Source: Escherichia coli O127:H6 str. E2348/69 (lineage in GTDB: Bacteria > Pseudomonadota > Gammaproteobacteria > Enterobacterales > Enterobacteriaceae). From it: DNA of 64,000 nt. Shown here piece by piece: positions 21,001 to 24,000 of the stretch. The stretch lies in assembly GCF_000026545.1 (NCBI RefSeq), contig NC_011601.1; one strand, written 5' to 3'. The position numbers are program-made. Each line of letters opens with the position of its first letter. Positions within the stretch are counted from its first letter, which is position 1.

Positions 21001-24000
21001 ACAGCTCGCTACGCCACAACTGTTACTGACGGCGCTCACCTGTTCGGAGTGCAACGTCTGCGCCAGCGTCGCCTGTCCGGTAGGAATTTCACCAATGCGC
21101 ATAAACCGCCTGCTTAAGCAGGAATTACGCGCACAAAATCTCCGCTACGAAGGTGCCTTAAATCCTGCTGATCCCATGGCAAATTATCGACTGATTCCCG
21201 TAAAACGGCTGGTAACCAGACTGGGCCTAATCCCGTGGTATCAGGATGCGCCATTGTCTGAACAGGTGCCTCAGCCCGAAAAAGTGACGTTATTGTTACG
21301 CCAGCACATCGGTGCCAGCGCAATTGCGTGTGTACAAAAAGGCGATCGCGTCGTTCATGGGCAATGTGTAGGTCAAATTCCACACGGCACATTAGGTGCC
21401 CCGATTCATGCCAGTATTGATGGCATGGTCAGCGATGTGACAGAAAACGCGATTACGCTTGTGAGAGGTTAACGATGTCGAAAGCGGTAGGTATTTTAGA
21501 ACTTAGCAGTATCGCGAAAGGGATGGAAACCGGCGACGCCATGCTGAAAAGCGCAAACGTTGAGTTACTGGTCAGCAAAACGCTATGTCCCGGAAAATTT
21601 CTGCTGATGCTCGGTGGCGATGTGGGCGCGGTGCAACAGGCCATCAACAGCGGTGCTTCCCTTGCTGGTGAAATGCTGGTCGACAGTCTTGTCCTGCCGA
21701 ATATTCATCCCAGCCTCCTTTCTGCAATCAGCGGACTTAACCATGTTGAGCAGCACCGGGCTGTCGGCGTAGTCGAAACCTGGAGTGTCGCTGCCTGCAT
21801 TGACGCTGCCGATTGTGCTGTCAAAGCTGCGAATGTCATTCTCGTTCGCGTGCATATGGCTTTTGGCATTGGCGGAAAATGCTACATGGTGGTTGCTGGC
21901 GATATTTCAGATGTTAATAACGCGGTCTCTGTCGCCAGCGAGCGTGCGGGAGAAAAAGGTTTGTTGATCTATCGGTCGGTGATTGCCCGTCCACATGAAG
22001 CCATGTGGCGTCAGATGGTGGAGGGATAATGACAACTCAGCACACAACTGAACGGATGATTCAGGAATATGTCCCTGGTAAGCAGGTCACGCTGGCACAT
22101 GTCATCGCCAATCCCGGGAAGGATCTGTTTAAGAAATTGGGTTTACCAGACACCGTTTCTGCTATTGGCATTCTGACGATTACCCCCAGCGAAGCATCTA
22201 TCATCGCATGCGATATCGCCACAAAATCAGGCGCTGTAGAGATCGGTTTTCTTGATCGTTTTACCGGTGCCGTAGTGCTGACTGGTGATGTTTCTGCCAT
22301 TGAATATGCACTTAGCCAGGTTACCCGTACGCTGGGTGAAATGATGCGCTTTACCGCCTGCCCCATTACGCGGACCTGACGTTATGCAACGTATGATGCT
22401 TATCGGCCCCAGCCAGTGCGGAAAAACGTCACTCACGCAATGTCTGCGTGGCGAAAATATTCATTATCAGAAAACGCAGGCTATCGTCTGGTCCCCGGCC
22501 ACCATTGATACACCAGGCGAATACCTCGAAAACCGCAGCCTTTACAGTGCATTGTTGGTCAGTGCCTGCGAAGCAGACATTATCGCGCTGGTACTTAATG
22601 CGGACGCACCGTGGTCACCTTTTTCGCCAGGCTTTACCTCGTCAATGAATCGCCCGGTCATTGGAGTAGTAACCAAAGCAGATTTAGCCAGTATGGAACA
22701 AATATCTTTGGTGAAATGTTGGTTACGGGAAGCTGGAGCGCACAACGTGTTAGTAACCAGTGCGGTTAATAACAATGGAGTTACAGAACTTTTTGCCTTG
22801 CTGCATACAGAAGAAGGCTGTCGCTAATTTCGATAGGTTCTCAGATGAGAATGATGACGGTGATACACAGATAAGAATCAATGAGCAATGAGGGTTGCCG
22901 GGCAACCCTCATTGAATAAAACAGGAATTACTTCGCTTCGCCGTTTTTCATTTCGCCCATAGCTTTCAGCTTTTTGGAGATATCGCGGCGTTCTTTGGAG
23001 AGCTCGGCATTTTTGATGATGTAATCGTCAACGCGATCTTCATAGTCACCTTTCATGCTGGCGATGATGCCCTGGATTGCTTCAACGCTCATTCCTGGCT
23101 TGATGTAATCGCTCAGGTTGTCCAGCAACAGGACGCGCTTCTGGTTGTCACGGATCTTTTTCTCAACGTCCTGAATTTCACGTTGCAGTTTGTTCTTACG
23201 ACGGAACAGACGAACAAATTCCAGTACGTCCTGGAATGAAGGCTTGGTAGTTTCCATTTTTATACCCCTGATAATGTGAGAGTCGGATTCGTTTAAGCAA
23301 CCGCTATTCGTTAGGGCCAACATTACTCATAGCTGCCGCAGATGACAATGCTTTTATCCCTTTTCACTATCATACCCTTTATCCTTGCTGAATCGAAGCA
23401 GCAGCAAGATGATTCTGAAGTTCAGGAATTATTTGCGCAAGGCCCGGCAAATCAGATTCGATAGCAACTCAAGCTGATGTGCCGTTTCCATGTTCAGCCA
23501 CACATAACCATAGATTGGTGTTTCTACGACTTTCAGGTCATGGTGGTTATCGAGCAACTGACGCAACTCTTCCACAGCATCGTTCAATTTTTCCGTATTG
23601 GCAAAAACCGGCTGCGGATTACCTTCGTACAGCGCATGAACAAGGCTCAGCAGTATTTGCTGCATCATGTGCTGGGTATCACGAAGTTTTTGCGCGTTCA
23701 ATAACACGAAATGGCTGGGGCGCGTGGCCCAGTATGCATTGATTTGCAACTCCAGCATACAAACCAGATTGCGATTAATGGTCTGGATACCTTCATATAT
23801 CGATTTTGGAATACGGGTTTCTTTGCTGGCGGGCGCAATCAGCCCACGCATTTTCACGGCATCGGTCAGGAGTTTTTGTAGATGGCTTTCCAGACGCGGG
23901 CGTTCGAGTAAGTTCGGTGAGAATGCAGATTGATAGACCCGATTATACTCGGTCAGACTTTTTGCCAGTTGAATGCGCCAGTGGATGAACGCTCGTTGTG

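Follow-up and report, generated by a model that had tools for sequence, protein, structure and literature searches.

The pdu operon of Escherichia coli O127:H6 str. E2348/69 ends at pduV, and the absence of pduW and pduX behind it is an old, genus-level trait that predates the species and is not a loss in E2348/69. A deletion of both genes in an ancestor is probably the cause. An operon that stops at pduV is the normal 3' end of the Escherichia-type (PDU1B) locus: that the two genes are missing has already been published as the definition of the PDU1B type, and every Escherichia pdu locus is ordinarily laid out in this way. The absence is a minor finding and is not strain-specific decay, but it provides useful context for pdu-positive pathogenic E. 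coli. The present analysis adds the junction at the nucleotide level and shows that it is conserved in E. albertii, in E. whittamii and, as a stump, in E. coli without the operon. It also adds a comparison of synteny with Citrobacter, which points to an ancestral deletion, and a search for a coding scar that found none.

Gene layout at the 3' end of the pdu operon

All coordinates given here are those of the window, the 64-kb stretch of the E2348/69 chromosome that was analysed, which has 100% identity to NZ_CP059840.2. The PGAP annotation was converted to window coordinates by adding 1799 to those of locus L001. The pduA-V operon is complete, starts at 8296 and has pduV as its last gene. On its 5' side lie pduF, pocR, a cobalamin riboswitch, a short ORF and cobU-cobS-cobT, and beyond tmaR (yeeX) follow yeeA, sbmC, dacD and sbcB. 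The features around the junction are collected in Table 1.

Table 1. Features at the 3' end of the pdu operon of E2348/69, in window coordinates.
Feature	Coordinates	Strand	Basis
pduU, microcompartment shell protein, penultimate operon gene	22029..22379	+	PGAP annotation of E2348/69; EutS/PduU-type BMC match
pduV, EutP/PduV-family GTPase-like protein, 147 aa, final operon gene in Escherichia	22384..22827	+	TIGR02528; annotation
3' part of pduV, the 183-bp stump retained by pdu-negative (K-12 type) E. coli	22645..22827	+	start points of genome matches; K-12-type annotation
pduV-tmaR spacer, 100 bp; slot of pduW (404 aa) and pduX (288 aa) in Citrobacter-type loci	22828..22927	.	
G+C-rich hairpin, perfect 13-bp stem, 3-nt loop, between convergent genes	22886..22914	.	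folding
tmaR (yeeX), DUF496 / PTS regulator TmaR, convergent with pduV	22928..23257	-	NF003844 and NF040881, both above cut-off; annotation
yeeA (FUSC family), syntenic anchor common to Citrobacter loci	23429..24487	-	annotation; tblastn synteny

The last gene of the operon encodes a full-length member of the EutP/PduV family, which scores 186.5 bits against TIGR02528 (curated cut-off 138.35) with residues 2-141 aligned to profile positions 1-141 of 142. The convergent TmaR/YeeX ORF scores 197.6 bits against NF003844. Exactly 100 bp lie between the two stop codons, and tblastn with the Citrobacter PduW and PduX proteins as queries found no match to either anywhere in the 64-kb window (E <= 1e-3). 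The spacer therefore has room for neither pduW nor pduX and both are absent there; the first-pass annotation had read the same from the sequence, and here the coordinates and the tblastn search agree.

Assignment to the PDU1B locus type

The PDU1B loci of E. coli and Shigella sonnei have been described as carrying all pdu genes of PDU1A "except for PduX and PduW" (Axen, Erbilgin & Kerfeld 2014, PLoS Comput Biol, PMC4207490). These loci keep cobSTU, with the remaining cob operon not co-localised, and yeeX, yeeA and dacD are common neighbours, together with sbcB, yeeF, a lysR-type gene and yeeZ, and a YkuD-like transpeptidase gene close by (PMC4207490). The genome table of the same study lists E. 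coli O127:H6 str. E2348/69 as 'EUT1, PDU1B'. Similarly, the pdu gene table in a transcriptome study of strain LF82 stops at pduV (PMC6379400).

The E2348/69 locus has every defining feature in common with PDU1B and no essential difference from it. All pdu genes from pduA to pduV were annotated or identified, and PduW and PduX are missing. Adjacent to the operon are cobT-cobS-cobU, a CbiG fragment, the riboswitch and pocR, without the remaining cob (cbi) genes. The flanks hold tmaR, yeeA, sbmC, dacD, sbcB, plaP (yeeF), yeeY (LysR) and yeeZ, and a gene for a YkuD-like L,D-transpeptidase, ldtA, lies upstream of cobT.

The PDU1A loci (Salmonella enterica pduA-X and the Citrobacter freundii type) share with E2348/69 the pocR-pduF / pduABCDEGHJKLMNOPQSTUV order and the neighbourhood, with cobUST on one side and yeeX-yeeA-sbmC on the other, and their PduT, PduU and PduV proteins are 75-92% identical. 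In contrast, PDU1A loci have pduW and pduX between pduV and yeeX, for a propionate kinase and an L-threonine kinase, as well as cbi genes upstream, and E2348/69 has neither. Only the 100-bp spacer follows pduV, and in the place of cbiA-T, upstream on the opposite strand, there is only an ORF that matches CbiG.

The junction is shared across Escherichia

A 2-kb query spanning the junction matched 5,418 of 5,426 complete E. coli genomes. The whole pduT-pduU-pduV-tmaR-yeeA segment is present in 644 of the 5,426, a patchy distribution that amounts to about 12% of genomes, and all 644 have the same junction layout. In nearly all other matching genomes the match begins at query position 846, which is window position 22645 and lies within pduV. 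These pdu-negative E. coli, about 4,800 including K-12 types, thus hold a 183-bp pduV stump followed by the same spacer. Accordingly, the annotation of a K-12-type genome shows a 183-bp 'EutP/PduV family' CDS, 100 bp and then tmaR, and remnants of prophage and IS elements flank the CDS at its other end. The remnant in K-12 (CP4-44 region) has the last 183 nt of pduV, the 100-bp spacer, the hairpin and tmaR in common with E2348/69, whereas everything upstream of 22645 is replaced by prophage and IS material in K-12-type genomes and E2348/69 retains the whole operon. Alternative breakpoints besides 22645 also exist among the pduV stumps.

In a scan of one genome per species, the pduV-(100-109 bp)-yeeX layout was found in two more E. 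coli, E. whittamii and E. albertii, and the stump version in one further Escherichia sp. Across E. coli, Escherichia sp., E. whittamii and E. albertii, spacer length stays within 100-109 bp. Since the 644 complete loci, E. whittamii, E. albertii and the roughly 4,800 stumps all have the same junction, the absence of pduW and pduX must predate E. coli as a species.

To look for the two genes elsewhere in E. coli, the Citrobacter pduW-pduX segment was compared by blastn with each of the 5,426 genomes, a search sensitive to about 65-70% identity. For the E2348/69 genome outside the window, the absence of a PduX-like gene rests on this nucleotide search. The search returned no pduX-like DNA in any of them, pduW-like DNA in a single genome (strain 48, from deer) and six very short matches to tdcD. 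Native pdu loci of E. coli thus carry neither pduW nor pduX in the 5,426 genomes. Strain 48 has a second, divergent and foreign pdu island (pduA...V plus pduW), which is cut off by IS66, is surrounded by IS and toxin genes, and is without pduX.

The corresponding slot in Citrobacter and relatives

The order and orientation of pduT-U-V and yeeX-yeeA-sbmC in Escherichia recur in some 20 Citrobacter species, in Pseudocitrobacter and in an unclassified MAG from soil (L027). In these Citrobacter-type loci the gap between pduV and yeeX is about 2.2 kb and the order is pduV-pduW-pduX-hairpin-yeeX. The first gene in the slot encodes a protein of 404 aa that scores 837 bits against NF009063, the equivalog model for PduW-type acetate/propionate kinases; its ATG lies inside pduV, so that the two genes share the final 16 nt of pduV. 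The second, the final pdu gene after pduW, encodes a 288-aa GHMP-kinase protein (PF00288 at 1.1e-13), for which no match to an NCBIfam model and no PDB relative were found. PduX has been assigned to PF00288 (Axen et al. Text S1, PMC4207490), and on the strength of this family and its operon position the 288-aa ORF is most likely PduX. After pduX comes a spacer of 42-90 bp with a hairpin, and then yeeX.

PduW and PduX are encoded by 21 of the 21 non-Escherichia loci that extend past pduV and by none of the Escherichia loci. L016, from a Pluralibacter MAG, likewise has pduV-W-X, with a neighbour other than yeeX. The contig scan used E. coli PduV peptide patterns, which find close relatives only, and no locus from Salmonella or Klebsiella was among its matches; these two genera, E. 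fergusonii and Shigella are covered through the literature alone. One MAG labelled 'Raoultella' (L018) hardly differs from C. braakii and does not count as an independent outgroup. Oddities were seen in loci L024, L027 and L006. The first-pass annotation had stated that the Salmonella operon continues with pduW and pduX, which agrees with the description of Salmonella PDU1A (Axen et al. Text S1, PMC4207490), and the same slot holds them in Citrobacter and others. It had also proposed aligning the pduV-yeeX junction with those of pdu-positive E. coli and Salmonella; the comparison made here, with Citrobacter, gave one layout in the Escherichia genomes and a filled pduW-pduX slot in Citrobacter.

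PduV of Escherichia and Citrobacter is 75-78% identical over residues 1-144, and the similarity ends at residue 144, near the start of pduW in Citrobacter. Between the two genera, identity is 84% for PduT, 92% for PduU and 78% for PduV, and 79% and 73% for the flanking core proteins YeeA and SbmC. The pdu genes have therefore diverged about as much as the flanking core, which fits vertical descent of the whole region.

Loss or gain of pduW and pduX

No coding remnant of pduW or pduX with statistical support was found in the spacer, either with an nhmmer profile of seven Escherichia spacers or by Smith-Waterman alignment with 200 shuffles per pair. The left 58 nt gave scattered, non-significant matches and have no consistent counterpart in Citrobacter genes. 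The right 42 nt, composed of a stop-like CAATGA, the hairpin and ATAAAACA, weakly match the syntenic post-pduX terminator of several Citrobacter loci (nhmmer E = 0.27-7). In the best pairs the score was reached by 0.01-0.2 of shuffles, so that each pairwise score is marginal; the likeness can be seen, for instance, between E. albertii CAGTGAGGATTGTCTGGCAACCCCCACTGAATAAAACA and Citrobacter L022 CAGTGAGCATCGAACAACGATCCTCACTGCAATAAAACA.

Several apparent signals were rejected. When the Escherichia junctions were aligned globally (MAFFT) with the 2.3-kb pduV-yeeX regions of Citrobacter, the spacer broke up into eight small fragments spread over pduW and pduX, which we regard as over-alignment. A spacer reading frame ending ..TQKRVNE(Q)* resembles ..AQKKLNEH.. 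of C. amalonaticus PduX, which we treat as chance: the PduX motif lies 17 codons upstream of the C-terminus, is not collinear with the terminator and is missing in other Citrobacter. The resemblance of 'MRMMTVIHR' to the PduW N-terminus 'MSHKIMAINAG' was not supported by the profile or the shuffle alignments.

An ancestral deletion is nevertheless the reading that we favour, because all other lineages and contexts seen have pduW and pduX behind pduV, the pduV/pduW overlap is tight, and neighbouring genes have demonstrably been lost. Its direction, loss and not gain, and its breakpoints are suggested by parsimony and synteny. The likeness in the right part of the spacer would be equally expected had pduW and pduX been inserted upstream of an existing terminator, and so the polarity rests on those two arguments.

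We propose that the ancestor of Escherichia, Citrobacter and Salmonella had a cbi-cob / pocR-pduF / pduA...V-W-X arrangement adjoining yeeX-yeeA-sbmC. The presence of pduV-W-X outside the yeeX context in the Pluralibacter MAG suggests that the ancestral operon included pduW and pduX. Both would then have been lost on the stem of Escherichia through a deletion of about 2.2 kb, bounded on the left by the pduV/pduW overlap and on the right by a point close to the stop codon of pduX; the end of PduV similarity at residue 144 fits such a left breakpoint. The cbi genes would have been removed by a separate deletion. The remainder would be pduV, a spacer of about 100 bp with the old intergenic hairpin, and tmaR/yeeX, and this junction would have been inherited by all later Escherichia lineages, including the majority later reduced to the 183-bp pduV stump.

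Alternatively, Escherichia may never have had pduW and pduX, its operon having ended at pduV, and the two genes may have been inserted before the terminator in the Citrobacter/Salmonella lineage. Such an insertion would account for the lack of a detectable pduW or pduX coding scar in the spacer and, if it occurred upstream of the hairpin, also for the hairpin next to yeeX that looks shared. The first-pass annotation had itself named, as a case against its reading, operons of the E. coli type that never carried the two genes. This holds for the present day, in that no extant native Escherichia locus has pduW or pduX; for the ancestor, synteny and parsimony suggest that they were present, although with no supported remnant in the spacer. 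We consider an insertion unlikely, because pduV-pduW-pduX forms a unit in many genera and, in L016, in a different context. Furthermore, pduW and pduX are part of PDU1A loci generally, including those of Yersinia and Tolumonas (Axen et al. Text S1, PMC4207490). The 16-nt overlap of pduW with pduV in Citrobacter is a tight junction typical of long co-residence, and the Escherichia locus has demonstrably lost other genes, of which the cbi scar remains.

A separate import, in which the operon came by horizontal transfer from a donor lacking pduW and pduX and entered the same cobT-yeeX site via homologous recombination, is very unlikely. It would suit the patchiness of pdu in E. coli (about 12% of genomes), the multiple gains and losses proposed for ST372 (PMC9997745) and the clearly foreign second pdu island in strain 48. 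However, the divergence of the Pdu proteins from those of Citrobacter is similar to that of the flanking core genes, and the stump and spacer in nearly all pdu-negative E. coli indicate that the locus was resident before the deletions. Recombination within the species cannot explain the absence of pduW and pduX in three Escherichia species, and among the loci compared no donor locus lacking them was found outside Escherichia. A recent deletion confined to E2348/69 or its lineage and tied to its own cbi loss, as the first-pass annotation implied, has in its favour only the absence itself and the strain-specific decay seen elsewhere in E2348/69 (the pduC nonsense mutation), and is refuted by the same junction in 644 E. 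coli, E. whittamii, E. albertii and about 4,800 stumps.

The hairpin in the spacer

The hairpin that the first-pass annotation reported in the spacer is real, and its stem, given there as 12 bp, is 13 bp. The spacer folds with an MFE of -28.9 kcal/mol, and compared with shuffled sequences z is -3.35 on the + strand and -4.59 on the - strand. Seven Escherichia sequences keep the pairing: 95.6% of cells are paired and two pairs show compensatory changes, and the paired share drops to 29-45% when the partners are slid as a control. The observed value was reached by 30 of 500 shuffles, which for n=7 sequences is modest statistical support.

The hairpin has the stable G+C-rich stem-loop of an intrinsic terminator, but no T/U run directly 3' of the stem on either strand; its tail reads UUGAAUAAAAC on the + strand and UUGCUCAUUGAUUC on the - strand. 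A terminator scan did not call it on the + or the - strand, because it has no U-tract. An Rfam search of 22500-23500 returned no family, and the hairpin is unique in the window, with no dispersed-repeat or REP-like copies in the 64 kb. Judged from its sequence and position, it is probably a 3'-end structure shared by the convergent pdu and tmaR transcripts, for which it may act as a terminator. We also considered whether the pduV stump, spacer and hairpin have been retained in nearly all pdu-negative E. coli as the 3' end of tmaR/yeeX, serving as terminator or 3'-UTR stabiliser and possibly as a source of a small RNA. The recurrent breakpoint at 22645 would then reflect selection and not a single inherited deletion. 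We think this whole reading very unlikely.

Consequences for B12 and propionate metabolism

The cob/cbi side of the locus retains only cobUST, the cobalamin riboswitch and an N-terminal fragment of CbiG. The fragment is encoded by an ORF at 4933-5439 (-) of 168 aa between cobU and the riboswitch, and it matches positions 1-126 of the 351 in the profile with E = 2.2e-20. It is a demonstrable scar of a parallel loss of cbi genes, and the first-pass annotation was right that these are missing as well. PduX phosphorylates L-threonine, CobD decarboxylates the product to aminopropanol phosphate, and CbiB joins that to adenosylcobyric acid (PMC6249242). E. coli has the CobU/CobS/CobT/CobC nucleotide-loop (salvage) steps only (PMC6249242). 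With no cbi genes, cobD or cbiB, PduX would be left without a substrate sink, and its absence alongside the cbi deletion is therefore logical. E. coli would salvage only cobinamide or B12 through CobUST, and the threonine phosphate made by PduX would then be useless.

PduW converts propionyl-phosphate to propionate with formation of ATP. E2348/69 has intact copies of both ackA and pta, and AckA shares 43% identity with PduW along its full length. In another pdu-positive E. coli, an AIEC strain, TdcD is the only PduW homologue reported, with 44% identity (PMC7360682). It is plausible from these similarities that AckA or TdcD substitutes for PduW, and the kinases to which the first-pass annotation had left this step are thus available. 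Propionyl-phosphate made by PduL would be converted by AckA, TdcD or both, or propionyl-CoA would pass to the methylcitrate cycle. The pdu-positive pathogenic E. coli (AIEC LF82, ST372, EPEC) would accordingly need B12 or cobinamide from outside, and would have to remove propionyl-phosphate or propionyl-CoA by way of AckA/TdcD or the methylcitrate route.

Additionally, E2348/69 has a C-to-T change at 11007 that converts PduC codon 534 from CAA to TAA (Q534*). Two other pdu-positive E. coli have CAA at this codon and an intact PduC of 554 aa. The pduC nonsense mutation is the one strain-specific lesion seen; it could make the E2348/69 operon non-functional and is worth knowing before this strain serves as a model for propanediol use.

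Decay and remnants in and around the pdu operon

The pduC gene of E2348/69 carries a stop at codon 534, where a single C-to-T change has converted CAA (Gln) to TAA, and the gene is marked as a pseudogene by PGAP. The diol dehydratase large subunit is thereby shortened by its C-terminal 21 residues. In contrast, E. coli JA0072 and D9, both pdu-positive, retain CAA at this codon and encode an intact PduC of 554 aa. Therefore, the pdu operon of E2348/69 may be impaired irrespective of pduW and pduX.

A remnant lies upstream, between cobU and the cobalamin riboswitch. The ORF annotated there as hypothetical matches NF004463 (CbiG, cobalt-precorrin-5A hydrolase; E = 2.2e-20) over profile positions 1-126 of 351, and is a scar left by the deleted cbi operon. 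The CbiG remnant retains its place behind the B12 riboswitch of that operon.

Coordinates of the features discussed
Feature	Record	Coordinates	Strand	Remark
cobU	window	4254-4799		flanks CbiG fragment
CbiG N-terminal fragment	window	4933-5439	-	NF004463 match
Cobalamin riboswitch	window	about 5589-5763		flanks CbiG fragment, other side
pduC	window	9408-11009	+	altered codon 11007-11009
pduV 3' part (kept as a stump in pdu-negative E. coli)	window	22645-22827		beside spacer and tmaR
pduV 3' stump	L002 (K-12-type E. coli)	6001-6183		beside spacer and tmaR
pduV early TAA	L006 (E. albertii)	about 10428-10441
pduW	L024 (Citrobacter amalonaticus AUH_CA_2023_1)	10438-11651		tblastn
Uroporphyrinogen-III C-methyltransferase gene	L027 (soil MAG)	11643-12386		cobA/cysG C-terminal type
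Second pdu island	L032 (E. coli strain 48, NZ_CP166879.1)	421-16188		pduA...V, pduW-like kinase gene

Variation at the pduV-tmaR junction and in pduW-pduX

In about 4,800 E. coli genomes that are pdu-negative, those of K-12 type among them, exactly the final 183 nt of pduV and the spacer survive beside tmaR. Other breakpoints occur in a few genomes (query positions 730, 852, 855 and 1661 in the 2-kb junction query), and thus the pattern suggests a single dominant old deletion together with some independent ones.

The sole pduW-like gene among the 5,426 complete E. coli genomes belongs to the second pdu island of strain 48, from which pduX is absent. This island is divergent, its DNA being about 75% identical to that of Citrobacter; it is truncated by IS66 and surrounded by IS elements and CDI toxin genes.

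In the unclassified soil MAG 'Proteobacteria bacterium CTSoil_132' the methyltransferase gene separates pduW from pduX, still upstream of yeeX. The tblastn match to pduW of C. amalonaticus is spread across three reading frames, reflecting either frameshift decay or an assembly error. Finally, an in-frame TAA ends the pduV of E. albertii four codons ahead of the usual stop (..CAT AGC GAA TAA GGC TGT CGT TAA), so PduV is slightly shorter there.
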